From Desulfosudis oleivorans (GTDB lineage Bacteria > Desulfobacterota > Desulfobacteria > Desulfobacterales > SURF-7), in assembly GCA_020723305.1 (NCBI GenBank), contig DYJC01000016.1, forward strand, positions 2,650 to 66,649: DNA of 64,000 nucleotides, read 5' to 3'. The notes under the pieces are model-generated. The model saw only the letters and a program-made list of their open reading frames with translations. It had not been told where the DNA came from and did not search any database. Below are positions 36,126 to 61,166 of this stretch, piece by piece. The number at the start of each line of letters is the position of its first letter. The stretch's first letter is position 1. The position numbers were made by a program, and so were the translations under genes.

Positions 36126-36154
36126 GTCTTATTTGATATTGAACTGTAAAAAAA

Positions 36155-37174: not shown

Positions 37175-37180
37175 CTGACC

Positions 37181-39255: not shown

Positions 39256-39286
39256 TATTCCCCCCTATATAATTGTGTCACATATA

Positions 39287-39343: not shown

Positions 39344-39390
39344 TAAATACTATGGTTTTTTCCAAAAAGTTACTATCGTGAATGGCTCAA

Positions 39391-39420
39391 CACCCCCCTG
39401 GCCCCCCTCCAGGGGGGAAT
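39391..39420 (+). repeat. C6/G6 palindromic repeat R3
   Basis: CACCCCCCTGGCCCCCCTCCAGGGGGGAAT, 53 nt upstream of the DUF559 start. Confidence 0.85.
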
Positions 39421-39472
39421 AAAAAATAAAAAATTCCAAATACGATTACCCAGGGAACCGGAGGAGCAGCCC

Positions 39473-39937: not shown

Positions 39938-39970
39938 CTCAAGGGGGTATAAGCAGCCGGAAAGACTTTT

Positions 39971-44421: not shown

Positions 44422-46581
44422 ATGCCTAAACCAAAGAATCAACCTGTGAATTTGAAAGTCGGGGAATTACTGAAAATGGAAGGGTTTGTCCAGGATGATC
44501 AGATTCAAAAAGCCCTGGAGATTCAGGAAAATGAAATTTTAATGGCCCGTCTGCCTGTTGAAGAATATATGCTGAAAAAAAAGCTTCTCACCAAAGTTCA
44601 GTTTGATAAACTCAAAGAGCATCCGGAGTATGGCAAATTTACAGCAGATCAGCTCGCATATAAGCTGAACATCATCAGCAAAAAAAATCTGGATGAAATC
44701 CAGAATCGAAGGAACCTGCAGCGGAGTATTGGTGAGATCCTTTGTGAAATGGGTACCATTACAACAAATGATCTGAATCATATTCTTCAGAAATACAGCA
44801 AGCATCAGAAATTTGGTGAAATCCTGTTACGGCAGGATTTTATTAATGAAGTCAACCTCAACATCGCTCTTCGAGAACAGACTCACCGGACAGATCCTCT
44901 GGGCAAAATACTTGTCCAGAAAAAGTTTATTACGGTTGATCAGCTATATCAGGTATTATCCAAACAATACAATATCCCCTACCGGAAGCTTGACGGATTT
45001 GTCGTCTATGACAATCAGATTGAGAAACTTATCAATATTGTCGGGTATCGATATGCCAAAAAAAATATGATCATCCCTTTGATGCTTGAGGATAATACGC
45101 TTACCCTGGCTGTCTCCTCTCCGGAGAAACTGGCTGTCGTTCATGAACTCGCTTATGTGTATACCCATCTGAAATTAAAATGCATATTTGTTTCCGAAGA
45201 AAAGTTTGATGAACTTTTTGAAACCCTATACGGGGTTGCCATCAAAGCATCAAAAGCTGCTGCGGATGATCGTTCCAGAAAAGAGACCGTCAGTCTTATC
45301 GATATCGATCTTGGAGAAGATACCGGCGATACAAGGGATACCAAATCCGGTAACATCTATGGAACCACCACCATAGAGGCGGAAGAGGTTGTTAATTTCA
45401 TTATCAAATACGGCATCAGTAACAATGCCAGCGATATTCATATTGAACAGAATCGGAAAAAGCCGAAAATCCGGTACCGGATTGACGGTATTCTCCAGAC
45501 ACTCAAGCTTGCATGGCTGGATGAACGGATCAATGAAATGATCGGCGCCATTATTTCCCGGATCAAGGTGATTTCAAACCTTGATATTGCAGAGCGGAGG
45601 ATGCCTCAGGATGGCGTGTTCCGGGTAAACTATTTTGATCGGGAAAAAAAACAGGGATTTGATCTGGATTTCCGGGTGGCGACCTGTCCGGCAATCATTG
45701 GTGAAAATGTTACCTTAAGAATCCTTGATTCCCGAAAAGCCGATGTCGGACTGGATCGCCTTAATCATTCGGCCCATGTTCTGGAGCCATTCAAAAACAC
45801 CTTGAAAAGTTCAGCAGGAATGGTGCTGGTTTCCGGACCGACCGGTAGCGGAAAAACCTCGACACTGTATGGCGCCCTGATGCATATCAACAATCCCGGG
45901 GTCAAAATTATTACGGCAGAAGATCCGATTGAATACAGTTTCCCGGATATCATGCAGACCCAGATCAATCCAAAGATCAATTTAACCTTTGCAAAACTTC
46001 TGCGCTCCTTTTTACGTTTTGATCCGGACATCATTCTTGTGGGAGAGATGCGGGATAAGGAAACCGCGAGCATTGGTTTTGATGCAGCGTTGACCGGTCA
46101 TCTTCTGCTCAGCACGATTCATACCAATGATGCGGTGAGTGCTGTTACACGACTTCTTGACCTTGGGATCGAGCACAATCAGATGGCATCGAGCCTTATG
46201 GCTGTAATGGCGCAACGTCTTGTAAGGACAACCTGCCTGTCATGCAAAAAGGAGTACACTCCCCAAAAAGAGGAGTGGATGCTTTTGTTTGACAAATACC
46301 CTGAACATCTGTCCTTTTTTATGGGCGAAGGGTGTGAAGAATGCAAGTTTACCGGGTACAAAGGCAGAACACTGATTTCTGAAATTTTCGTTGTGGACCG
46401 GAATGTTTCCCTTGCCTTGAATCGGGGGGAAAATGAAAATGAAATCCGTCGGATTGCGCTGAAAGGGGGAATGAAAACCATGCTGGATGACGGAATCATG
46501 AAACTCAATCAAACAACCCTGGAAGAGCTGATCCGGGTGGTGCCCCATGAAATGCTGAAGGAGTTTAAAGCAAGAAAATGA
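44422..46581 (+). CDS. GspE/PilB/MshE-family secretion ATPase with extended N-terminus
   Basis: 719 aa with Walker A GPTGSGKTST, Walker B ILVGEMRD and tetra-Cys CLSC...CEEC. A ~300-aa N-extension carries four MshEN-like 24-residue motifs. Confidence 0.85.
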   Translation: MPKPKNQPVNLKVGELLKMEGFVQDDQIQKALEIQENEILMARLPVEEYMLKKKLLTKVQFDKLKEHPEYGKFTADQLAYKLNIISKKNLDEIQNRRNLQRSIGEILCEMGTITTNDLNHILQKYSKHQKFGEILLRQDFINEVNLNIALREQTHRTDPLGKILVQKKFITVDQLYQVLSKQYNIPYRKLDGFVVYDNQIEKLINIVGYRYAKKNMIIPLMLEDNTLTLAVSSPEKLAVVHELAYVYTHLKLKCIFVSEEKFDELFETLYGVAIKASKAAADDRSRKETVSLIDIDLGEDTGDTRDTKSGNIYGTTTIEAEEVVNFIIKYGISNNASDIHIEQNRKKPKIRYRIDGILQTLKLAWLDERINEMIGAIISRIKVISNLDIAERRMPQDGVFRVNYFDREKKQGFDLDFRVATCPAIIGENVTLRILDSRKADVGLDRLNHSAHVLEPFKNTLKSSAGMVLVSGPTGSGKTSTLYGALMHINNPGVKIITAEDPIEYSFPDIMQTQINPKINLTFAKLLRSFLRFDPDIILVGEMRDKETASIGFDAALTGHLLLSTIHTNDAVSAVTRLLDLGIEHNQMASSLMAVMAQRLVRTTCLSCKKEYTPQKEEWMLLFDKYPEHLSFFMGEGCEECKFTGYKGRTLISEIFVVDRNVSLALNRGENENEIRRIALKGGMKTMLDDGIMKLNQTTLEELIRVVPHEMLKEFKARK

Positions 46582-46722
46582 GCCGGTTCCAGAAGTCTCT
46601 TGTTGTCATTCCGGTAAAGACCGGAATCCGGAGAAATGAAGTGCTATCCAGTATTTTCAGTTCTTTTCTGGACACCGGCCTTCGCCGGTGTGACGGTTTT
46701 TAATAGTTTTGAAATCAGCGCA
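46579..46722 (+). repeat. MITE-like repeat, copy B
   Basis: TGAGCCGGTTCCAGAAG ... GTCATTCCGGTAAAGACCGGAATCC ... GGACACCGGCCTTCGCCGGTGTGAC ... TTTTGAAATCAGCGCA. Its first three bases are the stop codon of the upstream ATPase gene. Confidence 0.85.
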
Positions 46723-46752
46723 AATGACTACTCTTTTTTGAACGGAGCGAAT

Positions 46753-48591
46753 TTGAAAAAAGCGGATGAGATATCATCAACTGAAAAGCTTCTCCATGTA
46801 ATCCGAAAAGGAAATGAAACCAGCCTGAAGGAATCCGGAGAAGCCGGAGATGATTTTATCGATCAGGAATTCAAGCCATCACTCTATACCATCGTTCCAT
46901 TCAAAAAAAAGATAACACTCAGCATCATTATCGGCAATCATGATCTCATGCTCGTCCTGATCAGCCGGATATCCGACCAGGACTGGAGTCTTCTGGATCG
47001 GAAAAGAGTTGTCTTTTCCCCGCAAATGAAAAAGGATTACAAACCGTTTTCTGTTTTTCTCCGGTCATCCATTTTACAGTTTCTGGAAGGCCGAAAGCCG
47101 GACTATATCTGGAGTACCATCCCCTCTACGAAAATTGAAACACGTTTCCTCACCATTCCAAAGGTGTCCTCCAGTCAGATACCCAAAGTTGCCTATTTTT
47201 CCTTTACCAAAATCAATCCAACCAATGGGGAGGATTTGCTTTTTGACTTTGAGATCTTGGGTGAAGTTTCTCAGGGAGGCGCTCAGAAACTACAGTTGTT
47301 TGCCTATACTGCATTTTCCAAGGAGGTTGACAATCTTCGGAAACTGTTTGTCGGAATAGGCTTGCCTCTTACCGGCATTTCCATTGTTCCGTTTGCAATG
47401 CAGAATCTTTTCAGAAGCAAGCTTCTGGGCAATCTGCCGGCAAATATATGTACCCTGTATGTGGGCAAGGACTGGTCCCGCATAGATATTTTTTCAAAAG
47501 GGAATCTTGTCCTGTCTCGGGATATCAAGACAGGGATCAACAGTCTTATCGAAGCAGTGAAGGGCCGGACAGAGAGAGAAATCCAAGAGGATGAACCGGA
47601 TAATAACCATCCGTACCTGGAAGATAAGGAGTTTTTAGAAAAATTTTTCAAAGACCTTTCCATCCGTGGCGCTGAAACCGGTCAGGGCATGAGTTCCGGC
47701 ACCCTGAACCATGCCGGTATGCTGGAGATGATTATCCCGGTAATCCGGAGACTGGTTCGACAGGTTGACAGAACATTTGAGCATTTTACCGTTAATTTTG
47801 ATCATGAACCCATCGGGAAAATTTTTATTACCGGAGATCTTTGCGCACATCCGCAAATCATTGATCTGATCAGTCAGCAGTTGAATTTTGATATTGATTG
47901 TATCGATCCTTTTTCAACCGGTATTGTCCGCATAAAAAAAAATCAGATACCCGATACAGTAGCGGAGAAGGATTCTTTTGCTCCGGCAATGGGTCTTGCT
48001 GTTTCAAATAACAACCGGACTCCGAACCTTCTTTACACTTACTTACAAAAAGGAATCACATCCAGAATTCAGAAAATCAATCAATATGTATTTATGGCTT
48101 TTCTGGCTGCCATGTCTGCCGGTATTGTTTTTTTTTACTGGCAGGATCATGCCATGAAGTTGAAAAAAGAGCGGATTGATCGATTGCATGTTCAGCTCGA
48201 GAACTTCAATCCTCTGGTTGAAAAAAAACTGATTCTTCAGATGGCTTCGGTTCTGGATAATGAAAGAAAGGAAAATGTTTGCCAGGCAGAAAGGTGTCTG
48301 GGCCTGGTGATGCTCTCTGAACTGGCTAGCAGAACTCCGGAAAATATCCGTCTATTAAAAATGGATGCTCAGTTTTTTAAAGATCCTTCCGAACCCGGCA
48401 AGAACAAACTTCTGCTGATCGAGGGAGCTGTCTTTCAGAGGAGTACTCCGGCGGATGCGGATCTGGCTGTTTATTTAATTCAACTTGGAAAATCTCCAAT
48501 TTTCAAACAGGTCAGCATAAGAGAAAAGTCGATTCAGATGATGAACGGTGAAAAAGTTTTGAAATTTATTGCGAAACTGGAATCTGTGTAA
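46753..48591 (+). CDS. PilM-PilN fusion (MshI/GspL-like) pilus assembly protein
   Basis: Track ORF 46636..48591 begins inside MITE B and has no ATG before codon 105. TTG 46753 is proposed because GGAG lies 5 nt upstream. The N-half is PilM-like. A TM helix YVFMAFLAAMSAGIVFFYW is followed by a coiled-coil/periplasmic part. Confidence 0.6.
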   Translation: MKKADEISSTEKLLHVIRKGNETSLKESGEAGDDFIDQEFKPSLYTIVPFKKKITLSIIIGNHDLMLVLISRISDQDWSLLDRKRVVFSPQMKKDYKPFSVFLRSSILQFLEGRKPDYIWSTIPSTKIETRFLTIPKVSSSQIPKVAYFSFTKINPTNGEDLLFDFEILGEVSQGGAQKLQLFAYTAFSKEVDNLRKLFVGIGLPLTGISIVPFAMQNLFRSKLLGNLPANICTLYVGKDWSRIDIFSKGNLVLSRDIKTGINSLIEAVKGRTEREIQEDEPDNNHPYLEDKEFLEKFFKDLSIRGAETGQGMSSGTLNHAGMLEMIIPVIRRLVRQVDRTFEHFTVNFDHEPIGKIFITGDLCAHPQIIDLISQQLNFDIDCIDPFSTGIVRIKKNQIPDTVAEKDSFAPAMGLAVSNNNRTPNLLYTYLQKGITSRIQKINQYVFMAFLAAMSAGIVFFYWQDHAMKLKKERIDRLHVQLENFNPLVEKKLILQMASVLDNERKENVCQAERCLGLVMLSELASRTPENIRLLKMDAQFFKDPSEPGKNKLLLIEGAVFQRSTPADADLAVYLIQLGKSPIFKQVSIREKSIQMMNGEKVLKFIAKLESV

Positions 48592-49139
48592 TGGCAAAGG
48601 CACTAAAAATAGACAGGCTGCCCAAACTACCCAAGAGAAGTTTTATCTATTTGCTGATCTGCGGAGGAGGGATATTTCTGTTCTGCCTTATTGGCATTTA
48701 TCCAAATTTCAAAGAAATATCCTCCCTTGATGATGAAATAACGATTCTGAATCAAAAGATCAGTGAACAGGAAATACTGTTTCCGGTGTTCAAAAAAATG
48801 TTGTCACGAATCAAACAATCCACCCATTTGAAGGGCAGAGAGGACACACGTGAAAAACTGAAAACAGAGGATATCGCCGCCTTTTCAGATATTATCGGAG
48901 GGTTTTCACAAAAAAATGATCTGAGTATTCATGAAAATACCATTGATATCCGCAAATTTAAGGAAAAGGGTGGATTTCTGGAGATGAATTATTCAATGCA
49001 AGGGGAGCTGGATGATTTCCGAATATTTATTATCCAGATGATGGCCTTGCCCTATGATATTCGAATCGGTCGGCTTGAGATTGAGCCGGTATCTGAGCAG
49101 AAAGCTTTTCAGCTTCGCATTTGGGTGGCGCTGAAATAG
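48591..49139 (+). CDS. PilO/MshJ/GspM-like bitopic assembly protein
   Basis: 182 aa with TM helix FIYLLICGGGIFLFCLIGIY followed by a coiled coil. The ATG overlaps the upstream stop (TAATG). Called by architecture and position only. Confidence 0.45.
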   Translation: MAKALKIDRLPKLPKRSFIYLLICGGGIFLFCLIGIYPNFKEISSLDDEITILNQKISEQEILFPVFKKMLSRIKQSTHLKGREDTREKLKTEDIAAFSDIIGGFSQKNDLSIHENTIDIRKFKEKGGFLEMNYSMQGELDDFRIFIIQMMALPYDIRIGRLEIEPVSEQKAFQLRIWVALK

Positions 49140-49399: not shown

Positions 49400-49882
49400 A
49401 TGAGTAGACGGGAAAAAATAATTGTCGTTGCCATGATCCTTGCCGTCGTATTGGGAGGGTTCAACTTCCTTGGGAAGCCTCCCGATCCTTTACTTGTCGG
49501 CAAGGAACAGCATATCAATGAGTTGAACCAGTTTATTGCAAAAGCAATTTCTCAATTGAATGATAATGGCGGCAAGGTTTCGGAGTATATCCTGAAAACA
49601 GCATCGCTCAAATTGGATAAAGATCCGTTTCTGAAAATGGAAGCGAAAAAAGCATCGGTTCCGGAGCAAAAAAGTTCAATCGCAGAAAAGGATGAACAGA
49701 CGTTGCATTATTCGGGATATCTTCAGTTGGGCCATAAAAACATTGCGATAATCAATGGATATGAGTATGAAAACGGAGATGCAATGGAATCCCTTGGCTA
49801 TATTGTTCAACAGATTACGCCTGAAAAGGTGATTCTGGAATCAATGGGGAAAGAAAAGATCATTCTTCTTATTGAAGAATAA
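49400..49882 (+). CDS. Small bitopic protein, PilP/MshK/GspC-like candidate
   Basis: 160 aa with TM helix IIVVAMILAVVLGGFNFLG and a beta-rich C-terminus YSGYLQLGHKNIAIINGYEYENGD...VILES. It sits directly before the secretin gene. Confidence 0.35.
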   Translation: MSRREKIIVVAMILAVVLGGFNFLGKPPDPLLVGKEQHINELNQFIAKAISQLNDNGGKVSEYILKTASLKLDKDPFLKMEAKKASVPEQKSSIAEKDEQTLHYSGYLQLGHKNIAIINGYEYENGDAMESLGYIVQQITPEKVILESMGKEKIILLIEE

Positions 49883-49987: not shown

Positions 49988-52120
49988 ATGAATTTTCAAG
50001 TTGAAAAAACCATTTTCGTGTATATGACAGCAGCAGTTTTTTTTCTGGCGGCAATATACGGCTGTGCAGAAAAAAACGGTTTGAACTCCAATCTTTCATT
50101 TGACAAATGGCGGGCAATGGCAGGTACAAACAAAGGTCATTCCCCGTCTGATAAAGGTCAGTCCACTGTTGTTTCCGATGACCTGTCCAAAAAGATACCG
50201 CATAAAGTGGAAGCGGTTTCAACAAGAAAAGTATTGCCTTCCAAAAGAATTACCATGAAACTTCAGGATACGGGCATATCCACGATTCTCAGGGCTCTTG
50301 CCAAGTCTGTTGAATTGAATATTCTGATCAACGAGAACATTAAAGGGAAAACCAGTATTCATGTCAAGGATGCAAGGTGGGATGAGCTGTTCAACGGGAT
50401 TGTCCGATCCAATGGACTGGCTTATGTCTGGGAGGGAGATCTGCTTCGGGTTATGACCATCGAAGATCTGCAACGTGACTTGAAACAGGCGGAGCAGCAG
50501 AGGGATTTACGGCTCACGGAGCCGATGCTGACAAGGATCATCCCGATCCGGTATGCGGATGAAAAAAAGCTGGGTGAGAATCTGGTCAAATTTCTTTCCA
50601 AGGATCAGAAAGGAGCTGCAATCGGATCCATATCCGTGGATGCGCATACAAAATCACTGGTGATTCAGGCACTGCAATCCGATCTGGATAGGCTGGCAAC
50701 CCTTGTGAACGATCTTGACAAACCCATTGCACAGGTTCTGATCGAGGCGAATATTATTGAAACCAGCCGGGAAACAGCAAGAGACCTGGGTGTACAGTGG
50801 GGAGGAGTGGTGAAAAGAGCAGGATCGACCAATCAATACCTGACTTCCGGTTCAAACAGTTCCGGAGCCTTGGGAAACAGTTTGGAAGCTCCCATAGCGC
50901 CCACTTCCGGTATGGCTGGAAATTTTCCGGCAGACCTTGGCAACAGTGGTGGATTGACCCTTGGCTATGTTGCAGAGAAGGCAGGCGAAAGGGTTCTTGC
51001 TGTGCAGCTCTCGGCTTTGCAGGCAGAGGGGAAACTGAATATTCTTTCCAGCCCGTCGATCACCACACTGGACAACCAGTCTGCCATTATTGAATCCGGA
51101 TCAACCGTTCCCTACCAGACGGTTTCTTCCAACGGCGATATCAACATTCAATGGAAGGATGCGGTTTTAAGACTGGAAGTCGAACCCCATGTGATCGATG
51201 AGGCATCACTCAAACTGGCGATCAAGACCCGGAAGGATGAGCTGGATTTTTCAAGGGAAGTGGATGGCAACCCGACCATCATAACCAAAAAGGCGGAAAC
51301 CAGTATCTTTCTTTTGGATGGCCAGACAACCGTGATCGGAGGACTGAACAAGGAAACCAAAACCGATACGGAATCGGGTGTACCGGGTCTGATGCATATC
51401 CCGTATGTGGGATCTTTTTTTAAAGGCACCAGTCATGGGGACAGCATGGAGGATGTACTGATTTTTATTACTCCTCATATTTTAAAGAAATCGCCTTCCA
51501 TACAATCCAAGGAAACAGAAATCTCTGAAAGTGAAGGAAAGATACTGGCTCAGGAACTGGAAAATGAATCAGTTCAGGAGAAAACAGATGAGCATCCTGC
51601 ACAAGGAAGCCCCCGTTTGGAAAAACCGGCTGTACTTGGAAAAGTTTCTGCGGAAGAATCGGAAACACTATGGCTGATGACGCAATCTGTCTATGGCGTG
51701 TATCGTCCGGAACTCGTGGAACAAGTCATGAAGATCAACCCCCATATTCAACATCCGGATCATATTGGTGTCGGGCAGGTGATCTATTTCCCGGCTATAC
51801 ATGAATCCGGAAGGATTTCTCAACAGAATGCATTCTGGATTCAGATTGATGAGGATGGAGAACTGGAAAAAGCCTATCGCAAGCTGCGATACTATAAAAC
51901 CTTGCTGCCGGACATTCAGATGATTCCTTACTGGAACGACCAGACAGGGCTGCATTTTGCCATTATTCTGAAAGAGGTATTTACAAAAGAGGAGCCGGCC
52001 CAGGAAAGAAGAAGTATACTTCCGGATTCCATGGGTGAAAAAGCAGAGGTGATTTCAATGTGGAAATCAGGGACTGTTTTTTTTGCAGATCCTTTCACAT
52101 CCTTGAAAAGAGCGGAATGA
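49988..52120 (+). CDS. Lipoprotein secretin (PilQ/MshL/GspD family) with C-terminal LysM-like extension
   Basis: 710 aa with lipobox FLAAIYGC and an N-domain ITMKLQDTGISTILRALAKSVELNILI. The secretin core includes VLIEANIIETSRETARDLGVQWGG, LNILSSPSITTLDNQSAIIESG, GVPGLMHIPYVGSFF and VLIFITPHIL. About 210 extra residues follow the core. Confidence 0.85.
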   Translation: MNFQVEKTIFVYMTAAVFFLAAIYGCAEKNGLNSNLSFDKWRAMAGTNKGHSPSDKGQSTVVSDDLSKKIPHKVEAVSTRKVLPSKRITMKLQDTGISTILRALAKSVELNILINENIKGKTSIHVKDARWDELFNGIVRSNGLAYVWEGDLLRVMTIEDLQRDLKQAEQQRDLRLTEPMLTRIIPIRYADEKKLGENLVKFLSKDQKGAAIGSISVDAHTKSLVIQALQSDLDRLATLVNDLDKPIAQVLIEANIIETSRETARDLGVQWGGVVKRAGSTNQYLTSGSNSSGALGNSLEAPIAPTSGMAGNFPADLGNSGGLTLGYVAEKAGERVLAVQLSALQAEGKLNILSSPSITTLDNQSAIIESGSTVPYQTVSSNGDINIQWKDAVLRLEVEPHVIDEASLKLAIKTRKDELDFSREVDGNPTIITKKAETSIFLLDGQTTVIGGLNKETKTDTESGVPGLMHIPYVGSFFKGTSHGDSMEDVLIFITPHILKKSPSIQSKETEISESEGKILAQELENESVQEKTDEHPAQGSPRLEKPAVLGKVSAEESETLWLMTQSVYGVYRPELVEQVMKINPHIQHPDHIGVGQVIYFPAIHESGRISQQNAFWIQIDEDGELEKAYRKLRYYKTLLPDIQMIPYWNDQTGLHFAIILKEVFTKEEPAQERRSILPDSMGEKAEVISMWKSGTVFFADPFTSLKRAE

Positions 52121-52134
52121 TAAGGGGATAGGGC

Positions 52135-53745
52135 ATGGATTACTTTGAAATCCTGAATTTGAGCAAAGAACCTTTTTCCAATTCACCGGATCCGGAATTT
52201 TTTTTCCAGTCCAGGCAGCACAAGGAGTGCTTGCAGAAATTGGAGATCTCCATCCGGCTTCGCCGAGGGCTGAATGTGGTTGTCGGGGAAGTGGGAACCG
52301 GAAAAACCACGCTTTGCCGTCAACTGATTCAAAAATTTTCAACTGATGAAAAAATCGAAACCTACCTGATGCTGGATCCCCAATTCTCTTCTTCTCAGGA
52401 GTTCCTGTCCGCCATTCAACGCTTGTTTGATGAAAGGGAAGTTGCCACAGATCCTCCGGGGCAGGAAGGCGATATCAACGCAAAAGAACGGATCAAGCAG
52501 GTTCTGTTTCAAAAAGGAGTCGATGAGAATAAGACGATTGTGCTGATTATTGATGAGGGGCAGAAGATTTCAGAACCCTGTCTGGAGATTCTTCGGGAGC
52601 TTTTGAATTATGAAACCAATCATCATAAGCTTCTGCAGATCATTATTTTTGCCCAGAAAGAGTTTGAAGAAGTAATCGCAAAGCATGAAAATTTCAAAGA
52701 TCGTATTAACCTGTACCATCGACTCGGGCCCCTTGATTTTCGCGACACCTGGCAGATGATTGCTTTTAGGTTACAACAATCCAGCCGGGACAAAACCGTC
52801 CGTCCTGTATTCACCCTGCCGGCATTCCTGGCCATCTATATTTCAACCTCCGGGTATCCCAGAAAGATTATCAATTTATGCCATCAGAGCATGCTGGCGA
52901 TGATTGTCCAGAACCAGCCCAAAGCCGGATGGCTCCTGATTCGGGCCTGTGCACGAAGGAATATGATTGGAAATCCTTTTACCGGGAGGCTGTCGCTGAC
53001 CTTCGGGTTAGGGTTGCTTCTGGTCGTATGTTTACTGATTTTTGGAAATCCGGATCTGTTTCATTTCTGGAAGGTGAATGCTTCTGAGAAGAAACAGGAA
53101 GTGCTGAAAAAGGATCAACCGGAAAAACCCAGGCCTGCCGAGGTTGCCGGGAAACCGGAAATAAAGGTTCCGGTTCCCCCCAAAAAGGAAATTCCTCCAA
53201 ATGATGCGGTTGATCCATCCAGTGAAACCGCGCCCAGGGTTCTCGGAAAGGTTTCGATTCAAAAGGGAGAGTCCCTTGGATTGATCTCTTTGAGTATATT
53301 CGGAAGGGTTGATCCCATGACCCTGGAAAGCATTGTTGCTGCCAATCCGCATATTGCAAGACCGGAAAATATCGAGACCGGAACAGTCATTCATCTTCCT
53401 GCAATTCCGGTGCGTGTCCGGAATACAGGCTTGCCATGCTGGTGGGTGAGGTTAGGCGAAACAGGCAGTCCGGAGGAGGCAATGGAGTTTATCCGTTCCC
53501 ATCCGGAACATGATCCGCCTTTTCGAATGATCCCTTTTTATTCAAAAAAATTAGGTCTGAAATTTGAGATCATTGCCAAGGAATATTTTTTTGATCCGGA
53601 TTCGGCGCAGAAACTGCTGGAAAAAATAGAGACAGCTGATTTCCCCCATGCCGGCATTCGATCCGGCTGGGGTGATGAAAAAGATGTTTTATATGCCAAT
53701 CCGTATCTGGTTTATAAAAGCGGGTCTGGAATGAGAAAAGAATAA
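52135..53745 (+). CDS. ExeA/GspA/MshM-like AAA ATPase with TM helix and periplasmic LysM-like module
   Basis: 536 aa. MDYFEILNLSKEPFSNSPDPEFFFQSRQHKE, Walker A GEVGTGKTTL and Walker B VLIIDEGQ. TM helix LTFGLGLLLVVCLLIF, a Pro/Lys-rich linker, and a C-terminal module homologous to the secretin tail. Confidence 0.8.
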   Translation: MDYFEILNLSKEPFSNSPDPEFFFQSRQHKECLQKLEISIRLRRGLNVVVGEVGTGKTTLCRQLIQKFSTDEKIETYLMLDPQFSSSQEFLSAIQRLFDEREVATDPPGQEGDINAKERIKQVLFQKGVDENKTIVLIIDEGQKISEPCLEILRELLNYETNHHKLLQIIIFAQKEFEEVIAKHENFKDRINLYHRLGPLDFRDTWQMIAFRLQQSSRDKTVRPVFTLPAFLAIYISTSGYPRKIINLCHQSMLAMIVQNQPKAGWLLIRACARRNMIGNPFTGRLSLTFGLGLLLVVCLLIFGNPDLFHFWKVNASEKKQEVLKKDQPEKPRPAEVAGKPEIKVPVPPKKEIPPNDAVDPSSETAPRVLGKVSIQKGESLGLISLSIFGRVDPMTLESIVAANPHIARPENIETGTVIHLPAIPVRVRNTGLPCWWVRLGETGSPEEAMEFIRSHPEHDPPFRMIPFYSKKLGLKFEIIAKEYFFDPDSAQKLLEKIETADFPHAGIRSGWGDEKDVLYANPYLVYKSGSGMRKE

Positions 53746-54067: not shown

Positions 54068-55777
54068 GTGAGGACAAAAAAGAAACTCGGAACAATGCTG
54101 TTTGAAGCCGGTCTGTTAACCGAGGCACAACTGGCAAAAGCAGTTAAGGATCAGCAGAAATATAAACTGAAACTGGGGCAGACCCTGGTCCGTGAAGGGA
54201 TCGTCAGTGGATCTCAGATCGCCGATATTGTTTCCAAACAGCTGAAAATAGATAAGTATCAGCCGGATAAATATCCGATTGACGTGGCTCTGTCCAAGAT
54301 TATTCCGGTTGAGATTGTTCAGAAGCATCAGGTGGTACCGCTCAGCAAGGATCGTTTCTTGCTGACGGTTGCCATGACCGATCCAATGGATATCGATACC
54401 CTTGACAAAATAGAGGTGCTTACCAATACCGAAGTGGAAGTGGTGATCTGCACGGAAAAAGAGCTGAATCATATTGTCAGCAGCATGTATGGCTCCCTTT
54501 CCGGTATCGGCGGCGTCCTTGAGGGTATCGAGGAGATGGAGTTTGAACGGAGTGATGAATCGGAACAGCAGCCGCTGACCGAGGATGTGGAGGTGGGCTC
54601 GCTTCACGACATGGTTGAGGAAGCCCCGGTGATCCGGCTGGTGAACTCGATCCTGGCGCAGGCTGTGCGTGAAGGGGCAAGCGATATCCATATCAGCCCG
54701 GAAAAAGATTTTGTCCAGGTTCGGTTCCGTGTCGACGGCAGGCTTCACGAGGTGCCGGCACCGCCAAAATCTATGATATTATTGATCATCTCACGATTGA
54801 AAATTCTGGCGAACATGGATATCGCAAGATCCAGGATTCCCCAGGACGGCCGGTTCACGGTAAAGATGGATAACAAGGAAATCAATATCCGCGCCTCTAC
54901 CATCCCGACGATTTACGGTGAAAATCTGGTGCTCCGGCTGCTGGATACTAGTGCCGGGGTTTACTCTCTGGGAAGCCTCGGGATTGTGGATCAGGATATC
55001 CAAAAAATTGAGAATGCCATCAGCAAGCCCTATGGAATGATTCTCAGTACCGGGCCGACCGGAAGCGGCAAGAGCACCTGCCTGTATTCCATTTTACAGA
55101 AGATCAACAAGCCGGATATCAATATCATCACACTGGAAGATCCGGTGGAATACAGGGTTGAAAAGATCCGGCAGATTCAATTGAACAGGAAAGCAGGAAT
55201 GACGTTTGCGGACGGGCTGCGGTCGATCATGCGCCAGGATCCGGATGTGATCATGGTCGGCGAGATCCGGGATGCGGAAACCGCAACCATCTCCGTACAG
55301 GCAGCCCTGACCGGTCATCGGGTGTTAAGTACGGTGCACACCAATGATGCTGCCGGGGCCATTACCCGTTTCATTGATATGGGCATTGAACCGTTCCTGG
55401 TTTCATCGGTGATGCTGCTTTCCATTGCACAGCGCCTGATCCGGAGGGTTTGCCCGTATTGCAAGAAACCCTATAAGCCGCCTCAGTCCGCCCTGGAATA
55501 CTGGGGGCTCTCTAAAATAGAGGGAGCTGATTTTGTAAAGGGAACCGGCTGTTTCAACTGCATGGATACCGGGTACAAAGGGCGCGTTGGATTGTATGAG
55601 ATATTGAGCATTGATGAGATGGTTCAGAACATGATCCTCCAGAAAAAATCCGCCCAGGAAATTACACGCGCTGCAAAAGCAGAAGGCCTGCTCAGCACAT
55701 TAATGGAAGATGCCACCCGGAAAGTACTGGAGGGTGTTACGACTCTGGAAGAAGCAGCTTCAGCGGTGATGGTATAA
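54068..55777 (+). CDS. MshE/GspE/PilB-family pilus ATPase with N-terminal MshEN-type motif pair
   Basis: 569 aa, GTG start. N-terminal KLGTMLFEAGLLTEAQLAKAVKDQ-QKYKL-KLGQTLVREGIVSGSQIADIVSKQ. Walker A GPTGSGKST, Walker B IMVGEIRD and a CPYC...CFNC Zn motif. Confidence 0.85.
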   Translation: MRTKKKLGTMLFEAGLLTEAQLAKAVKDQQKYKLKLGQTLVREGIVSGSQIADIVSKQLKIDKYQPDKYPIDVALSKIIPVEIVQKHQVVPLSKDRFLLTVAMTDPMDIDTLDKIEVLTNTEVEVVICTEKELNHIVSSMYGSLSGIGGVLEGIEEMEFERSDESEQQPLTEDVEVGSLHDMVEEAPVIRLVNSILAQAVREGASDIHISPEKDFVQVRFRVDGRLHEVPAPPKSMILLIISRLKILANMDIARSRIPQDGRFTVKMDNKEINIRASTIPTIYGENLVLRLLDTSAGVYSLGSLGIVDQDIQKIENAISKPYGMILSTGPTGSGKSTCLYSILQKINKPDINIITLEDPVEYRVEKIRQIQLNRKAGMTFADGLRSIMRQDPDVIMVGEIRDAETATISVQAALTGHRVLSTVHTNDAAGAITRFIDMGIEPFLVSSVMLLSIAQRLIRRVCPYCKKPYKPPQSALEYWGLSKIEGADFVKGTGCFNCMDTGYKGRVGLYEILSIDEMVQNMILQKKSAQEITRAAKAEGLLSTLMEDATRKVLEGVTTLEEAASAVMV

Positions 55778-55778
55778 A

Positions 55779-57002
55779 ATGGCTAAATTTTCGTACAAGG
55801 CGATCAATGAGCAGGGGGAAAATTTATCCGGTTCCATTGAGGCAGAGTCTTCGGAAATGGCTACCAATATATTGAGTGCAAGGGGTATCATCCCTCTTTC
55901 AGTAAGAGGAGAAGCAGGGGCCGGGGGCGGCGCTTCCCGTCTGGATGCTTTGAATGAATGGCTGACCCCTGTGAAAGCGCCGGATCTGATTATTTTCACC
56001 AAACAGTTCCGGACCTTGCTGAAATCCGGTGTGCCGATTGTTAAATTACTGGAGGTGGTGGGAAGCCAGACGGAAAATATCAAGCTGAAGAAGATCATTC
56101 ATTCCATGAACGATGATATCCGGGAAGGGGCAAGCCTGCATGATGTTTTTAGAAAACATCCAAAGGCATTTTCCCCCCTCTATTGCAGTATGATGAAAGC
56201 CGGAGAGGCAAGCGGCGCCTTGCCGGAGGTTCTGGAAAGGCTGGCGTTCATCATCGAACATGAACACAGGATAAAGTCGGATGTGAAATCCGCGCTTCAA
56301 TATCCGATGATTGTTATTGTTTTCCTTTGCGTTGCCTTTTTTGTGCTGTTAACGTTTGTGATTCCAAAATTCGTAAGGGTGTTTGTGAGCGCCGGGATTG
56401 ATCTGCCGATGCCCACCCGGATCTGCATGTTCATGTATGAGTTCATGGCAAATTACTGGGTTATTCTGGTTGGAGCCATTGTCTCCGGAGTGATTGCGCT
56501 GTTTTATTATACCAAGACAGAGCAGGGGAGCTATGTCCGGGATACGCTGTTTATGAAAATACCGGTTATCGGCACACTGTTTGTCAAGGCGGCCATGTCC
56601 AGGTTTGCAAGTATTTTTGCCATACTCCAGTCCAGCGGAGTGGATATCCTGGACTCCATGAAGATTCTTTCCGGAACCATCGGGAATCTTGCCATTGCAA
56701 GGGAGTTCCAGAACATTATTAACCGTCTGGAAGAGGGAAGAGGCATTGCCGAACCCTTGGCCAAAGCCAGGTATTTCACGCCGATTGTGATTAACATGAT
56801 TGCCATCGGAGAGGAGTCCGGAAACCTGGATGAGATGCTGGAGGAGATATCGGCTCATTATGATTTTGAACTGCAATATGCCATGAAGAAATTGTCCGAT
56901 GCCATTGGACCGATTTTAACCATCGGACTTGCCGCGGTAGTTGGTTTTTTTGCCCTGGCCATATTTTTGCCCATGTGGGATCTCACAAAGGTTGTGAAGT
57001 GA
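55779..57002 (+). CDS. GspF/PilC/MshG-family platform protein
   Basis: 407 aa with two GspF-type repeats and three hydrophobic regions. It starts 2 nt after the ATPase stop. Confidence 0.85.
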   Translation: MAKFSYKAINEQGENLSGSIEAESSEMATNILSARGIIPLSVRGEAGAGGGASRLDALNEWLTPVKAPDLIIFTKQFRTLLKSGVPIVKLLEVVGSQTENIKLKKIIHSMNDDIREGASLHDVFRKHPKAFSPLYCSMMKAGEASGALPEVLERLAFIIEHEHRIKSDVKSALQYPMIVIVFLCVAFFVLLTFVIPKFVRVFVSAGIDLPMPTRICMFMYEFMANYWVILVGAIVSGVIALFYYTKTEQGSYVRDTLFMKIPVIGTLFVKAAMSRFASIFAILQSSGVDILDSMKILSGTIGNLAIAREFQNIINRLEEGRGIAEPLAKARYFTPIVINMIAIGEESGNLDEMLEEISAHYDFELQYAMKKLSDAIGPILTIGLAAVVGFFALAIFLPMWDLTKVVK

Positions 57003-57084
57003 TGTGTTGATGTTATCGAGGAAAAATTTTTGAGATAATCAGCTAGCCGGGAAAGCCATACCGGCAAAACGATTTGCTGTATTT

Positions 57085-57229
57085 TGAGCCAATTTCAAAA
57101 GTCTGTTGTTGTCATTCCGGCGAAAGCCGGACACACAGTGAAGCCTTGCGCTATCCAGTATTTTTAGTTCTTTTCTGGACACCGGCTTTCGCCGGTGTGA
57201 CGTCTTTTGATAGTTTTGAAAATAGCTCT
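57085..57229 (+). repeat. MITE-like repeat, copy F
   Basis: TGAGCCAATTTCAAAAG ... GTCATTCCGGCGAAAGCCGGACAC ... GGACACCGGCTTTCGCCGGTGTGAC ... TTTTGAAAATAGCTC. It lies about 75 nt upstream of the pilin gene. Confidence 0.85.
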
Positions 57230-57303
57230 TTTGATAAATTGATTGTTTTTTTTTTGAAATTGAATATACTGTGAGTATCTAAAATCTTGGGAGGGATTTT
57301 TTG

Positions 57304-57696
57304 ATGAAGAAACGAAATCTGGTAAAAAATGAAGAGGGTTTTACGCTGGTTGAGATTATCGCTGTTCTGGTTATCCTTGGAATTTTAGCAGCCGTGGCCA
57401 TACCAAAGTATTTTGATCTTCAGAAAGAGGCAAAAGAAAAAGCCCTTACTGCAGCGATGTCAGAGGCGATTTCAAGGGTTAACGGCCATTTTGGTAAGCA
57501 ACTCCTTTCCGGTTCAGCATGGAATACGATTACCTACAGCAACGCAACCCTGGGAGATGATCTGGGAGATTTTACACTCAATGTGACCAATGCTTCCGGT
57601 AATTCAATCACCCTGACGGTTACGGCAAAACCAGGCAGGGCAGCTGATGGCGCTACCATACCACCCAAGACCATACCCAAACCCGGGTCAATTTAG
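57304..57696 (+). CDS. Type IV pilin / pseudopilin (probable major subunit)
   Basis: GGGAGGG lies 8 nt upstream of ATG 57304. Prepilin motif KNEEG|FTLVEIIAVLVILGILAAVAIPKY with Glu5. 130 aa, no Cys pair, and a Pro/Thr/Lys-rich C-terminal tail. Confidence 0.8.
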   Translation: MKKRNLVKNEEGFTLVEIIAVLVILGILAAVAIPKYFDLQKEAKEKALTAAMSEAISRVNGHFGKQLLSGSAWNTITYSNATLGDDLGDFTLNVTNASGNSITLTVTAKPGRAADGATIPPKTIPKPGSI

Positions 57697-57763: not shown

Positions 57764-59875
57764 TTATTTTTTTTCTATTTTCTTTTGCCCCCTATTCAGG
57801 AGCAGTCGATCCTTCTGATAGGATTGAATGACAGGCTGCAAGACAGCCAAATCCGGAAGATAGATCTTTGTTTCGGGATTTTTCATGGATAACCTGATCT
57901 GTTCCATTATGGACAGGCCCTGTTTGTTTTTCATCAGGCTGTCCAAATGGTGCCGGCAATTTCCGGTTTGGCCGAGCCGGGCATGCAATTCAATCAGGGC
58001 AAGGTGTGCCTGCGGAAAGTCCGGTTCCGATTCACTTACCTGATTCCAGATGGAAATCGATTTTTCCCATTCTTTTCTTTTCCGGTAAATTTCAGCCATT
58101 GCAATCCGATAATCCGTCTGATCCGGATCAAGAATTGTAACTTTCCGTATGGCTTCCAGTGCGCTGTCCAGTTTGTTTTCTTTCAATAAAATAACGCTTT
58201 TTGCAAACAGAAGGTCTGGATTATCCGGCCAGAAAGAAAGTGCATGTTCGACTAGACCCATGGCTTTTTGGCGATCGCCCTGTATCATATGGATACGGGA
58301 AAGTTCTGCCCAGATATAGGGAGAACCATTGTTGATATGTAGCGCTTCCTCAAAGGCGGATCCGGCTTTGCTGTACTGTCTTGTCACATATGCATCATGC
58401 AGCGCCTTATTGAATATCAGGGTCCGGTGCTGAATTTTATTGTTAAACCGGTTTATCTTTTCCGCCTTTTCCAGCATCCGGATCGATTCTTCCGTACGGC
58501 CGATCTCCCACAAACTTCTTCCCAGATTGAGGAAAGGCGTACTCAAGTTCGGGGATTTCCTGCTGTTATCCTGCCAGAGGCGGACGCCGGATAAAAAAAG
58601 ATGGTTCCGCATGTAGGTTGTATGGGACTGTGATACAAGAAGGATGATTCCAGCGATTAAGAAAAGGGTTCGCATGAATCTGGTTTTGGACAGGTGGTCA
58701 ATTGGTCTCGTCAGCATGATCGCAAAAATCAGAAAAAAGAAGATGGAGGGTAAATAGTTCCGGTGCTCATAGATCAGTTCAAGGGGAAGAAAGGAGCCCT
58801 CGATCAGATGATTGAAAATAAAAAAAAGAATCCCGAAACCGATAACCGGATATTTCCGGGAAGAATACACGCCAAAGTACAGGAAGGAACACAGAAGGGC
58901 GATAGAGGGCAGGGTCGACCATGGGGAAAACAGGCTCCGGGAGATTTCAATATCATGAAGGAGTGTAAACCCGGAGCTGACCGGATAAAGCAGAAGCGAG
59001 ATATAAAAAATGATTACCCTGGGTTCGGTCAGAAGCCGTTCCAGCATCGTAAAATACCGGATCTTATACCCGTTTAAAATAGAGGCCGGAGAAAAAAGAA
59101 ATGATCCCAAGATCAGCATGCCGGTCAGGATCAACAGAAAAAGCAGGATATGTTTTTTGTTTTTTTCTTGCGGTAACCCTTGAATGATGATGACGTCATA
59201 TAAAAAGATTGAAATTGGAAGCATCAGGGCATTTTCTTTGCCGGCAATGGCTAAAATGCCTGCGAGCATAAATAAAAGAAACCCGATTCCTTTTTGTTTT
59301 GCTTCCGCATGCACCCGGAAAAAGATGTAGAATAGCATGGACAGGATATAAAACATGGCAGACATGGATGCCATTCTTTGCACAATATAGGTTACGGCTG
59401 TGACCTGAATGGGGTGGGAAGCCCAGAAAAGGGTGGAGAAAAGAGAAATCGGGTAGATATTTTTCAGAGAATCCGTTGCCGGGTTCTGAAGTTTCAGCGT
59501 AATATGGATCAATAAAAACAGAAGAATGGATGTAATGCAGTGAATTGTAAGATTGACGATATGATATCCAAATGTATTATTCCGGCTGAAGTAATAATTC
59601 AAGGCAAAGGTCAGATAGGATAACGGCCGTGTATCATAGGTATGATTCAGTTTTTTCCCATACAGGATGTTTTTTAGGGAATCCAATGAAAATTCCCGCA
59701 GATGGATATTGGGATTATCTGTGATGTTCAAAAAGTCGTCATAGTGGAAGGGAGCGTGGAAACTGTTGCTGTAGATTATGAGCAGCAAAATCAGAATGGC
59801 CGTAACGGCAAACAGACCTTCCCTTGCTGTGGGGAGAAGAATACGATTTTTTGTCATAGGGTAATATCGGGGCAT
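57764..59875 (-). CDS. TMTC-like GT-C glycosyltransferase with C-terminal TPR array (fourth paralog)
   Basis: 703 aa with APFHYDDFLNITDNPNI, YHIVNLTIHCITS and HPIQVTAVTYIVQRMASMS, then TPRs in the C-terminal ~270 aa. It is convergent with the pilin gene. Confidence 0.75.
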   Translation of the reverse strand: MPRYYPMTKNRILLPTAREGLFAVTAILILLLIIYSNSFHAPFHYDDFLNITDNPNIHLREFSLDSLKNILYGKKLNHTYDTRPLSYLTFALNYYFSRNNTFGYHIVNLTIHCITSILLFLLIHITLKLQNPATDSLKNIYPISLFSTLFWASHPIQVTAVTYIVQRMASMSAMFYILSMLFYIFFRVHAEAKQKGIGFLLFMLAGILAIAGKENALMLPISIFLYDVIIIQGLPQEKNKKHILLFLLILTGMLILGSFLFSPASILNGYKIRYFTMLERLLTEPRVIIFYISLLLYPVSSGFTLLHDIEISRSLFSPWSTLPSIALLCSFLYFGVYSSRKYPVIGFGILFFIFNHLIEGSFLPLELIYEHRNYLPSIFFFLIFAIMLTRPIDHLSKTRFMRTLFLIAGIILLVSQSHTTYMRNHLFLSGVRLWQDNSRKSPNLSTPFLNLGRSLWEIGRTEESIRMLEKAEKINRFNNKIQHRTLIFNKALHDAYVTRQYSKAGSAFEEALHINNGSPYIWAELSRIHMIQGDRQKAMGLVEHALSFWPDNPDLLFAKSVILLKENKLDSALEAIRKVTILDPDQTDYRIAMAEIYRKRKEWEKSISIWNQVSESEPDFPQAHLALIELHARLGQTGNCRHHLDSLMKNKQGLSIMEQIRLSMKNPETKIYLPDLAVLQPVIQSYQKDRLLLNRGQKKIEKK

Positions 59876-60071: not shown

Positions 60072-60581
60072 ATGCCTGAACAGATGAGACAATCAGCCCA
60101 TAATATTTTTCCTCCGCGCAGCCCAGATGGATTTACCGTAATTGAACTTATCGCGGTACTGGTCATGATCAGCGTGATCAGCGCGGTCATTCTGGGACGG
60201 ATGGGTGGGGATATAAAGGCGGATCTTGACGCACGAACCGACACCTTGAAAGCACATCTCCGGTATGCCCAGTCAAGGGCGATGGATTCAGATCTGATCT
60301 GGGGAATCCGGTATACCGGAACAGGATATTTTCTTTTTTCTTTTAACGGGAGTTCACAATCTGCGATTCGTATACCGGATGAGGAGAATGTGATTGTTGA
60401 TCTTTCAGGCAATGGAATCAGCCTGGGCTCTTTTCAGGCAATTTCATTTGATTCATGGGGAAGCCCATATGCAAATGCCACAGGAACCGGTTCTTCTGCC
60501 GGACAGACAATTGTTGTTTCTGACGGAAGCAACCCCCTGAATTCGATTGCAGTCACAAAAAATACAGGATTTATCCAATGA
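60072..60581 (+). CDS. Minor prepilin-type protein (GspH/FimT-like)
   Basis: 169 aa. Prepilin motif SPDG|FTVIELIAVLV. LKAHLRYAQSRAMDSD resembles GspH/FimT-type minor pilins. Confidence 0.7.
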   Translation: MPEQMRQSAHNIFPPRSPDGFTVIELIAVLVMISVISAVILGRMGGDIKADLDARTDTLKAHLRYAQSRAMDSDLIWGIRYTGTGYFLFSFNGSSQSAIRIPDEENVIVDLSGNGISLGSFQAISFDSWGSPYANATGTGSSAGQTIVVSDGSNPLNSIAVTKNTGFIQ

Positions 60582-61000
60582 TGAAAAAAAGAACCGCATT
60601 CCATTATGACCAAAGGGGTTTTACGCTTCTGGAGGTCATTATTACCCTGGTGATCGCTGCGATCTTTGGAAGCATGCTGATACAGTTTACCGGCACAAGC
60701 ATGTCCAGAAGCGCTGATACGGTTGAGCGGGTCAGAAACGGAAGCACACTTGTCCGGACGATTGAATCGATCACAAAAGATTATCGAAGCTGGATACAAA
60801 ACAATCCGGATGATCCCCTGGTCAATTTTAAAAATACAATCGATGCCTCCTATGGAGGAGGAAATATTGCCGTCCAAACGGTTTTTTCAGATGTTGATTC
60901 CGGAATGGATACGGATGTTGAAATACTCTGGGTCACGGTCTCCGAACTGGATGAAGGCCTGAATGTCAGGCAATCCCTGGTTACACTTTTTACCAGATGA
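60578..61000 (+). CDS. Minor prepilin-type protein
   Basis: 140 aa with DQRG|FTLLEVIITLVIAAIF. The start overlaps the upstream stop (ATGA). Its stop TGA is the first 3 nt of MITE copy G. Confidence 0.7.
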   Translation: MMKKRTAFHYDQRGFTLLEVIITLVIAAIFGSMLIQFTGTSMSRSADTVERVRNGSTLVRTIESITKDYRSWIQNNPDDPLVNFKNTIDASYGGGNIAVQTVFSDVDSGMDTDVEILWVTVSELDEGLNVRQSLVTLFTR

Positions 61001-61142
61001 GCCAATTTCAAAACGATTGAAAAGTGTCACACCGGCGAAAGCCGATGTCCAGAAAGGAACTGAAAATATTGGATAGTGTTACACTTTACTTCGTGTCCGG
61101 CTTTCGCCGGAACTTCAACAACAGACTTTTGAAATTGGCTCA
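60998..61142 (-). repeat. MITE-like repeat, copy G
   Basis: TGAGCCAATTTCAAAACG ... GTCACACCGGCGAAAGCCGATGTCC ... GTCCGGCTTTCGCCGGAAC ... CTTTTGAAATTGGCTCA. Confidence 0.85.
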
Positions 61143-61166
61143 GATAGAATTGAGAAGCAGCACACA

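Follow-up and report, generated by a model that had tools for sequence, protein, structure and literature searches.

The window analysed here, a stretch of 64,000 nucleotides from Desulfosudis oleivorans (contig DYJC01000016.1, positions 2,650 to 66,649 of the forward strand), contains a gene cluster that is predicted from its sequence to encode a type IV pilus machine, with a PilQ-type lipoprotein secretin and a gene order like that of mannose-sensitive haemagglutinin (MSHA). Beyond its conserved core, this secretin carries a C-terminal module of about 160 residues, made up of a LysM half and a SPOR-like half, that is paralogous to the C-terminal module of the GspA/ExeA-like membrane ATPase encoded by the next gene. 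To judge from sequences and models, it is reasonably probable that the secretin tail serves as a covalently tethered, multivalent anchor or targeting device for peptidoglycan, complementing the same module on the ATPase.

The shared C-terminal module

The genes of the secretin and the ATPase lie on the same strand, 14 bp apart, the gap including a purine-rich stretch, and can be divided as follows.

49988..52120, + strand: gene of the PilQ-type secretin, 710 amino acids, with a C-terminal LysM + SPOR-like tail (open reading frame; TIGR02515)
49988..50065, + strand: putative lipoprotein-type signal peptide ending at lipobox Cys26 (...AAIYGC; hydrophobic segment followed by x-G-C)
50243..51487, + strand: conserved secretin core, N0/STN, N1 and secretin domain, residues 86-500 (Pfam; aligns to solved PilQs up to their C-terminal ends; ratio of non-synonymous to synonymous substitution rates, dN/dS, 0.064-0.084)
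51488..51625, + strand: acidic low-complexity linker, residues 501-546 (22% identity and dN 0.75 to the related locus L003, with conserved domains on both sides)
51626..51805, + strand: LysM half of the secretin tail, residues 547-606 (modelled as beta-alpha-alpha-beta; Phage_tail_X 14.6-15.1 bits, below cutoff; dN/dS 0.02-0.18)
51806..52117, + strand: SPOR-like half of the secretin tail, residues 607-710 (modelled as beta-alpha-beta-beta-alpha-beta; Foldseek match to the DamX SPOR domain; dN/dS 0.16-0.35)
52135..53745, + strand: gene of the GspA/ExeA-like membrane ATPase, 536 amino acids, beginning 14 bp past the secretin stop codon (open reading frame; AAA_22 E = 1e-21)
52135..52989, + strand: cytoplasmic AAA_22 ATPase domain, residues 1-285 (Pfam AAA_22 at 43-180; TIGR03015 140 bits, below cutoff)
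52990..53049, + strand: single transmembrane segment, residues ~286-305 (top 19-residue Kyte-Doolittle window, 2.56, at residue 286, with Arg residues before it)
53050..53232, + strand: Pro/Lys/Glu-rich periplasmic linker, residues 306-366 (from the sequence; transmembrane and linker region 35% identical to L003)
53233..53718, + strand: ATPase copy of the LysM + SPOR-like module, residues 367-528, paralogous to the secretin tail (BLASTP E = 4e-24; Phage_tail_X 26.3 bits; LysM E = 0.0039; dN/dS 0.20)

A first-pass annotation of the window, made from the letters alone, had aligned secretin residues ~547-703 by eye with residues ~367-527 of the ATPase. A BLASTP comparison of the whole secretin with the whole ATPase bore this out, aligning residues 547-707 with residues 367-528 with 54 identities in 162 positions (33%), 54% positives and a single gap of one residue (E = 4e-24), while all the remaining segments had E > 2. 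The interval that had been singled out, 51626-53715, corresponds exactly to the region from secretin residue 547 to ATPase residue 527, and the ~210 residues counted past the conserved end of the secretin turned out to be 207 amino acids, the Pfam Secretin domain ending at residue 500.

The secretin passes the curated cutoff of TIGR02515 (PilQ), with 308.3 bits against 284.35 over residues 86-500, and misses those of GspD (TIGR02517, 221.7 against 351.35) and MshL (TIGR02519, 113.5 against 250.2); its best solved homologues are PilQ structures. A Pfam scan rendered Secretin at 343-500 (5.9e-45), Secretin_N at 182-249 and weak STN/N0 matches, and detected no AMIN domain. The lipobox Cys is present in all 23 relatives listed, tailed and tail-less alike, and, since signal peptides ending in x-G-C recur across them, the sequences suggest lipoprotein 'liposecretins' that may need no pilotin. 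With regard to the ATPase, its N-terminal AAA+ domain, one transmembrane segment and periplasmic C-terminal region reproduce the GspA/ExeA layout. The first-pass annotation had framed the pair after ExeA and ExeD of Aeromonas, which holds for the layout of the ATPase but not for the rest, since PF01471 was not found on the ATPase (none at E ≤ 0.01 in the whole protein or at E ≤ 10 in the tail), and the secretin is of the PilQ type, in a type IV pilus cluster of MSHA-like order, and is not the ExeD of a type II secretion system (T2SS). From its sequence features, the ATPase would be ExeA/GspA-like in architecture only.

The secretin tail was modelled with AlphaFold2 from a 28-sequence alignment of the module family. 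The model, in which a beta-alpha-alpha-beta unit at positions 9-62 is followed by a beta-alpha-beta-beta-alpha-beta unit at 76-150, has a mean predicted local distance difference test score (pLDDT) of 92.8 and a predicted template-modelling score of 0.87, values from which the two halves can be taken to form one compact unit. The elements modelled for the first half (E9-14, H21-29, H34-43, E58-62; pLDDT > 95) are those of the LysM fold. This agrees with the LysM-like pattern recognised in the first-pass annotation, and so do the profile comparisons: with 26.3 bits against 22, the ATPase tail is above the cutoff of Phage_tail_X, a family of the LysM clan, and it scores 17.5 against 20.9 with LysM itself, the two families being matched by 16 and 10 of the 28 family members, respectively. 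The family profile, moreover, matches the solved LysM domains of Ecp6 (2.7e-6), Kbp (5.9e-5) and SafA (6.9e-5) and, weakly, that of the secretin-associated protein TsaP (3jc8_Ta, E = 0.035). Foldseek related the module to LysM proteins with probabilities of 0.84-0.99 but with E > 0.03, and the search with the whole module rendered nothing at E ≤ 1e-3.

The second half had been described, tentatively, as SPOR-like, an assignment that its SPOR topology and fold matches favour. When modelled alone (pLDDT 85.2) it gave a sharper SPOR match than the whole module, the top Foldseek match in the PDB being the SPOR domain of DamX (2lfv; probability 1.00, template-modelling score 0.56-0.58, root-mean-square deviation 2.1 Å over 73 columns), followed by that of CwlC (1x60; probability 0.97, deviation 3.0 Å), with all the other matches at probabilities ≤ 0.47 and deviations > 5 Å. 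Pfam SPOR (PF05036) was the sole family recurring for this half and was reached by 5 of the 28 family members (best E 1.1e-5), neither window copy matching it at E ≤ 1 and no Pfam model spanning this half in either of them. Matches of two other kinds were discarded: in the PDB profile search, designer pentatricopeptide proteins matched through repeat-summation artefacts, no single domain being significant, and a match to Regnase_1_C (17.4 bits, below cutoff, over 21 residues) was put down to chance.

Distribution and origin of the tailed secretins

In a locus scan that took one genome per species, the same uninterrupted tailed reading frame was found in three metagenome-assembled genomes (loci L001-L003), from Desulfocicer (94% identity), Desulfobacterium (93%) and a member of the Desulfobacteraceae (74%), the adjacent ATPase likewise bearing the module in each of them; Desulfocicer is itself placed in the Desulfobacteraceae, Thermodesulfobacteriota, in the taxonomy. 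A search with the whole secretin rendered 18 clusters of 692-730 amino acids with 96-100% query coverage and identities down to 48%, after which the next ~100 relatives have 500-560 amino acids and ~70% coverage. The module hidden Markov model (HMM) confirmed the tail in these 18 clusters and its LysM part in a further one, P0194, making 19 database clusters. The tail is under purifying selection, with dN/dS of 0.11-0.29 against 0.064-0.084 in the core; between the window and L003 the values are 0.064 for the secretin core, 0.18 for the LysM half, 0.33 for the SPOR-like half and 0.20 for the ATPase module. The linker, on the other hand, has diverged, and in every tailed secretin it is 40-70 residues long and of variable composition. 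The low dN/dS of the tail together with the divergence of the linker indicates a maintained domain on a freely evolving tether. In the 94%-identical orthologue of L001 (6001-8112) the stop codon comes after ...FFSDPF, 7 residues short of the end of the window secretin, and the residues beyond the conserved ADPF motif are therefore dispensable.

A missed frameshift, the fusion of a separate gene or a misassembly, any of which would have made the extension an artefact, can be practically dismissed. No support was found for it, although an empty word-indexed search with the tail had at first hinted at an orphan sequence. Against it stand the uninterrupted frame in the window and in three independent metagenome-assembled genomes, the 19 clusters from several sources, the purifying selection and the family found by exhaustive search.

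This exhaustive search was carried out with HMMER, comparing a two-sequence profile of the window tails with 1.84 billion representatives (clusters at 50% identity). It rendered 800 representatives at E ≤ 1e-3, 416 at E ≤ 1e-10 and 72 at E ≤ 1e-30, most of which match the full ~160 residues; with such numbers the module can be considered a real family. Word-indexed searches returned no homologues with the secretin tail alone, and none with the 28-sequence module alignment despite 4926 candidates; in the latter case Pro/Ala-rich linker residues may have dominated word matching. The 150 representatives listed were sorted by phmmer against the window secretin core and AAA domain. Among them, the module follows an ATPase N-terminal domain in ~90, a secretin occurs exactly once (P0007), and ~50 are short reading frames, most of them starting in mid-ATPase or in the linker, that correspond to truncated metagenomic sequences. 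Since the matches listed are mostly ATPases and include a single secretin, the home of the module would be the C-terminus of the GspA-like ATPase and the secretin fusion a rare, derived state. About 8 of the ~90 ATPases (P0003, P0004, P0005, P0008, P0010, P0019, P0054 and P0058), of 630-870 amino acids, have two or three tandem modules or partial copies after the transmembrane segment. The module defines a family of sizeable extent, a compact periplasmic unit of LysM and SPOR-like parts of which Pfam sees the second half in a minority of members.

The relationships of the tailed secretins were analysed in a neighbour-joining tree of the core (121 sequences, 420 columns, 300 bootstraps). The smallest split holding all 19 tailed sequences (the 18 clusters and the window secretin) has 22 members, the extra ones being P0168, which falls inside in 300/300 bootstraps, and P0249 and P0226, which do so in 165/300. 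P0168 (L011, 776-2642) is tail-less and ends in a 30-residue acidic stub, no module remnant being found in the 270-bp gap between it and its ATPase, and it has probably lost the tail secondarily. One acquisition with at least one loss would be, from this tree, the most economical reading. As a single small group, the tailed secretins are nested within tail-less relatives whose operon is the same and whose ATPase bears the module, and the sequences place this lineage in a small, Desulfobacteraceae-centred group of sulfate-reducing bacteria. The proposal in the first-pass annotation that the module was duplicated onto the secretin is thus supported by this nesting and by the ATPase carrying the module in nearly all of the 150 matches listed. 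The nearest relative of each secretin tail is another secretin tail, and a secretin tail is 28-38% identical to its cognate ATPase tail and 36-47% identical to unrelated ATPase tails; the copy is therefore old and has not been homogenised with its neighbour. Recent gene conversion between the two tails was discarded because of the low identity of the cognate pairs. A possible route would be that the ATPase gene was duplicated in tandem and that a deletion then fused the 3' end of the secretin gene to the post-transmembrane part of the first copy.

Tails that match the adjacent ATPase occur in two other operons. In L008 (6707-10160) a secretin of 663 amino acids, with a core ~51% identical to that of the window, ends in a canonical Pfam SPOR domain, and so does its ATPase of 468 amino acids, the two tails being 35% identical (E = 1e-12); there is no LysM in either of them, and the module HMM does not detect them. 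The closest relatives of this secretin are tail-less, and in L010 the SPOR domain is found on the ATPase alone. In L009 (6001-9529), the secretin P0194, of 606 amino acids, has a 91-residue extension in which the LysM half alone is present (E = 1e-11 to profile positions 16-68); the ATPase encoded next to it carries the complete LysM + SPOR-like module. Both secretins fall outside the tailed group in the core tree, from which it follows that a C-terminal domain of wall-binding type was apparently gained by the secretin on at least three branches, each time of the type present on its own ATPase.

The operon common to the window and all the related loci comprises the genes for a PilM/N-like protein, a PilO-position protein, a small transmembrane protein with a weak GspB (T2SSB) match, the secretin, the AAA_22 ATPase, an MshE-type ATPase, PilC and a pilin. 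It does not change with tail status, being the same in the tailed L004, L006 and L007 as in the tail-less L005 and L011, in which the module is still on the adjacent ATPase. Closely related operons that differ only in the presence and type of a secretin-tethered copy of the ATPase domain constitute a natural experiment, in which it is directly testable whether wall binding is needed on the side of the outer membrane, on that of the inner membrane or on both.

Location and possible role of the tail

Residues ~500-506 of the window secretin align to the C-terminal ends of the solved PilQs (3jc8 896/901, 9x0w 707/714, 6ve2 715/731, 6w6m 569/571), and the same residues align to the start of the S-domain in GspDs (5wq7 578/627, 5zdh 588/646, 6hcg 594/657). 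In the structures of GspD with its pilotin, the S-domain is located in the periplasm, on the outer face of the secretin barrel, and binds the pilotin there. From this attachment point and the periplasmic S-domain we infer that the secretin tail is periplasmic; the 46-residue disordered linker would let it reach the wall. It would bind peptidoglycan and have an anchoring or targeting role. The module of the ATPase follows a single transmembrane segment with positive-inside charges and is therefore periplasmic as well.

As we envisage it, an old duplication would have put the ATPase module at the C-terminus of the secretin behind a disordered linker of 40-70 residues, and the assembled secretin, with 12-15 subunits, would carry a periplasmic ring of tethered LysM/SPOR-like modules, which would bind the glycan strands of the peptidoglycan. 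The secretin would thereby be fixed to the wall from the outer-membrane side and might be guided to 'denuded' peptidoglycan at the septum or the pole, and the ATPase would bind the same wall feature from the inner-membrane side. AMIN, SPOR and LysM domains all recognise denuded septal or polar peptidoglycan, and the AMIN domains of PilQ and the LysM domain of FimV govern localisation and multimerisation of the secretin (PMC5285504, PMC10653833). What other pilus systems obtain from AMIN domains, TsaP or FimV would be provided in cis by the secretin tail. It is conceivable, albeit doubtful, that the type-matched copying reflects a functional requirement, the same reader domain on the inner- and outer-membrane copies gripping one peptidoglycan feature as a trans-envelope clamp that would position and thread the secretin without a dedicated hydrolase and select septal or polar sites.

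Several points weigh against the anchor or against parts of the evidence adduced for it. The C-terminus of PilQ is extracellular according to the methods section of PMC5285504 and, if this were also the case here, the tail would be unable to reach the cell's own wall. The window copies individually miss the Pfam LysM and SPOR cutoffs, save for the ATPase tail on Phage_tail_X; the Foldseek E-values for SPOR are modest (best 4.5e-3), and the hhalign comparison of the second half with the two canonical SPOR tails of L008 is weak and out of register (probability 9%). Because of these modest E-values and the uninformative hhalign result, the second half is called SPOR-like, and the models would make it a divergent domain of this kind, short of a proven SPOR member. 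The module tree is saturated (distances 1.0-1.6) and contains no clean secretin-tail clade, which leaves a single origin unproven; the single acquisition rests therefore on the core tree and the nearest-neighbour identities. Finally, the type-matching may mean that the neighbouring gene was the easiest DNA donor, with no functional requirement involved.

Among the other explanations of the tail, docking between the two proteins, in which the secretin and ATPase tails would bind each other or co-oligomerise across the periplasm, joining the inner-membrane ATPase to the outer-membrane pore, with peptidoglycan binding secondary or absent, appears unlikely. It would account for the fact that in all three lineages the type of the secretin tail (LysM + SPOR-like, SPOR or LysM) is found on the partner ATPase, and it could be related to the multimerisation of ExeA and the action of GspA/GspB on the secretin (PMC9239104), but cognate tails are no more alike (28-38%) than unrelated ones (36-47%), with no sign of pairwise co-evolution, tail-less secretins pair with the same ATPases in L005, L010 and L011, and LysM and SPOR are established glycan binders. 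The tail could also replace the S-domain or the pilotin, aiding outer-membrane targeting, protecting monomers or promoting multimerisation instead of anchoring the finished pore. The same module is present, however, on an inner-membrane protein, where piloting would make no sense, its fold is unlike the helical S-domain, and the conserved lipobox, a known self-piloting solution, occurs in tailed and tail-less relatives alike; this makes such a replacement improbable, in spite of the attachment of the tail exactly at the S-domain position, the effect of the FimV LysM domain on PilQ multimer formation (PMC5285504) and the result of the Pfam and family scans of the cluster proteins, in which no pilotin gene was recognised.

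There is, on the other hand, little chance that the tail is displayed outside the cell, as an adhesin at the pilus exit binding external glycans such as chitin, the peptidoglycan of other cells or exopolysaccharide. The extracellular position of the PilQ C-terminus mentioned above would be in line with it, as would the fact that LysM also binds chitin, the top solved matches being the chitin-binding Ecp6 and CERK1. The tail starts, nevertheless, where the periplasmic S-domain of T2SS secretins starts, the paralogous module of the ATPase is periplasmic, and the SPOR-only and LysM-only variants also mirror periplasmic ATPase domains. An anchor or targeting device acting on the cell's own wall is thus the reading that we retain.

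For pili and secretion systems it is an open question how large envelope-spanning machines pass and are fixed in the peptidoglycan mesh. Domains that bind the wall are well known on secretins or around them, the solutions found so far placing the wall-binding element at the N-terminus of the secretin (AMIN, SPOR) or on separate proteins (TsaP, FimV, GspA, GspB). In PilQ there are N-terminal AMIN domains, a LysM domain comes from TsaP, and GspA, which binds peptidoglycan via PF01471, acts together with GspB when the secretin is assembled (PMC9239104), whereas the only T2SS secretin known to have a dedicated peptidoglycan-binding domain, an N-terminal SPOR, is the Legionella LspD, in an organism without GspA/GspB (PMC9239104, PMC6617341). 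Our searches of the open-access literature gave no account of a secretin with a LysM or SPOR domain at its C-terminus, and none of a GspA-like ATPase that bears LysM or SPOR. The architecture had struck the first-pass annotation as unfamiliar, and the peptidoglycan-binding domains described on secretins are indeed N-terminal only (PMC9239104). The following traits appear not to have been described: the location of the module at the C-terminus, its composition from LysM and SPOR-like halves, the paralogy that links it to the partner ATPase, and the recurrence of acquisitions matched in type.

Each of the known systems shares some of these traits. The PilQ AMIN domains of Pseudomonas aeruginosa and Myxococcus xanthus are, like the window tail, for which the binding is inferred, peptidoglycan-binding domains within a type IV pilus secretin polypeptide, directing the machine to the septal or polar wall (PMC5285504, PMC10653833), but they have another fold, precede N0 at the N-terminus and have no paralogue in another component of the machine, whereas the window tail is a C-terminal LysM + SPOR-like unit on a long linker. 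LspD likewise has a SPOR-type domain fused to the secretin; this is N-terminal, in a system lacking GspA/GspB, while in the window it is C-terminal, joined to LysM and repeated on a GspA-like ATPase. The ExeA/GspA and ExeB/GspB proteins of the Aeromonas and Vibrio T2SS resemble the window system in having an AAA+ ATPase with one transmembrane segment and a peptidoglycan-binding region in the periplasm, encoded beside the secretin and needed for its assembly through the wall, and a weakly GspB-like protein is encoded upstream of the window secretin. ExeA, however, has PF01471 and a cysteine-peptidase-like domain in place of the LysM + SPOR-like module (plain SPOR in L008 and L010), and in GspA systems as described the partner is GspD, not a PilQ-type secretin, and the domain is never also on the secretin. 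TsaP (Neisseria, Myxococcus, Pseudomonas) is a LysM protein that forms a peripheral periplasmic ring round PilQ and ties it to peptidoglycan, but as a separate, non-covalently bound polypeptide, in contrast to a LysM domain that is covalently on every secretin subunit and joined to a SPOR-like domain. The ATPase-borne module recalls FimV/HubP, an inner-membrane protein whose periplasmic LysM domain promotes PilQ multimers and polar localisation; this is, however, a polar landmark scaffold without an AAA domain, and its secretin has no paralogous domain. Finally, the T2SS S-domain has the same attachment point, right after the last conserved secretin strand, but is a short helical pilotin-binding segment and not a 160-residue globule on a disordered linker.

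The pilus gene cluster and its surroundings

The other genes recognised in the cluster are the following.

44422..46581, + strand: first MshE/PilB-type assembly ATPase, with MshEN cyclic di-GMP motif (T2SSE 8.5e-112, MshEN; NF053729 78.4 bits against a cutoff of 38)
46636-48591, + strand: PilM/PilN-like fusion (PilM_2 E = 1.2e-9; TIGR01175 below cutoff)
48591-49139, + strand: PilO-position protein (conserved gene order)
49400..49882, + strand: small transmembrane protein directly upstream of the secretin, 160 amino acids, possibly a GspB/PilP-like secretin partner, a weak assignment (Pfam T2SSB 23.1 bits against a cutoff of 28.4, E = 5.9e-5)
54068-55777, + strand: second MshE/PilB-type ATPase (T2SSE 1.6e-133; NF053729 53.6 bits against a cutoff of 38)
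55779-57002, + strand: PilC/GspF platform protein (T2SSF 2.1e-60)
57301..57696, + strand: type IV pilin, 131 amino acids (N_methyl motif E = 3e-7)

The order from the PilM/N-like to the PilO-position gene is kept across L003-L011, and the L009 equivalent of the small transmembrane protein also has a faint T2SSB match. The window cluster includes two PilB/MshE-type assembly ATPases, both of which pass the curated NF053729 cutoff, the first having an extra N-terminal extension of ~130 amino acids. Between pilC and the pilin gene, a sigma-54 activator is encoded in L004 (15893-17227), L005, L006, L007 and L009, while the window (57002-57301) and L003 have merely ~300-500 bp of non-coding DNA at this site, and therefore the regulator seems to have been lost or moved in the sub-lineage that they represent. 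Downstream of the major pilin, and separated from it by a minus-strand gene (57764-59875) for a large TPR membrane protein, there are three more genes with prepilin N-methylation motifs (60072-61733), one of them weakly GspH-like, which are probably minor pilins.

Directly upstream of the pilus cluster lies an operon (32450-42789) encoding MoxR (AAA_3), DUF58, vWA/BatA, vWA, TPR and BatD proteins. BatD and TPR genes occupy the same position in L004, L006 and L007, which indicates that their linkage to the pilus cluster is conserved, and different upstream genes are found in L005, L008 and L009. The G+C content is ~0.35-0.42 in positions 1-32000 of the window and ~0.44-0.50 in positions 32000-64000.

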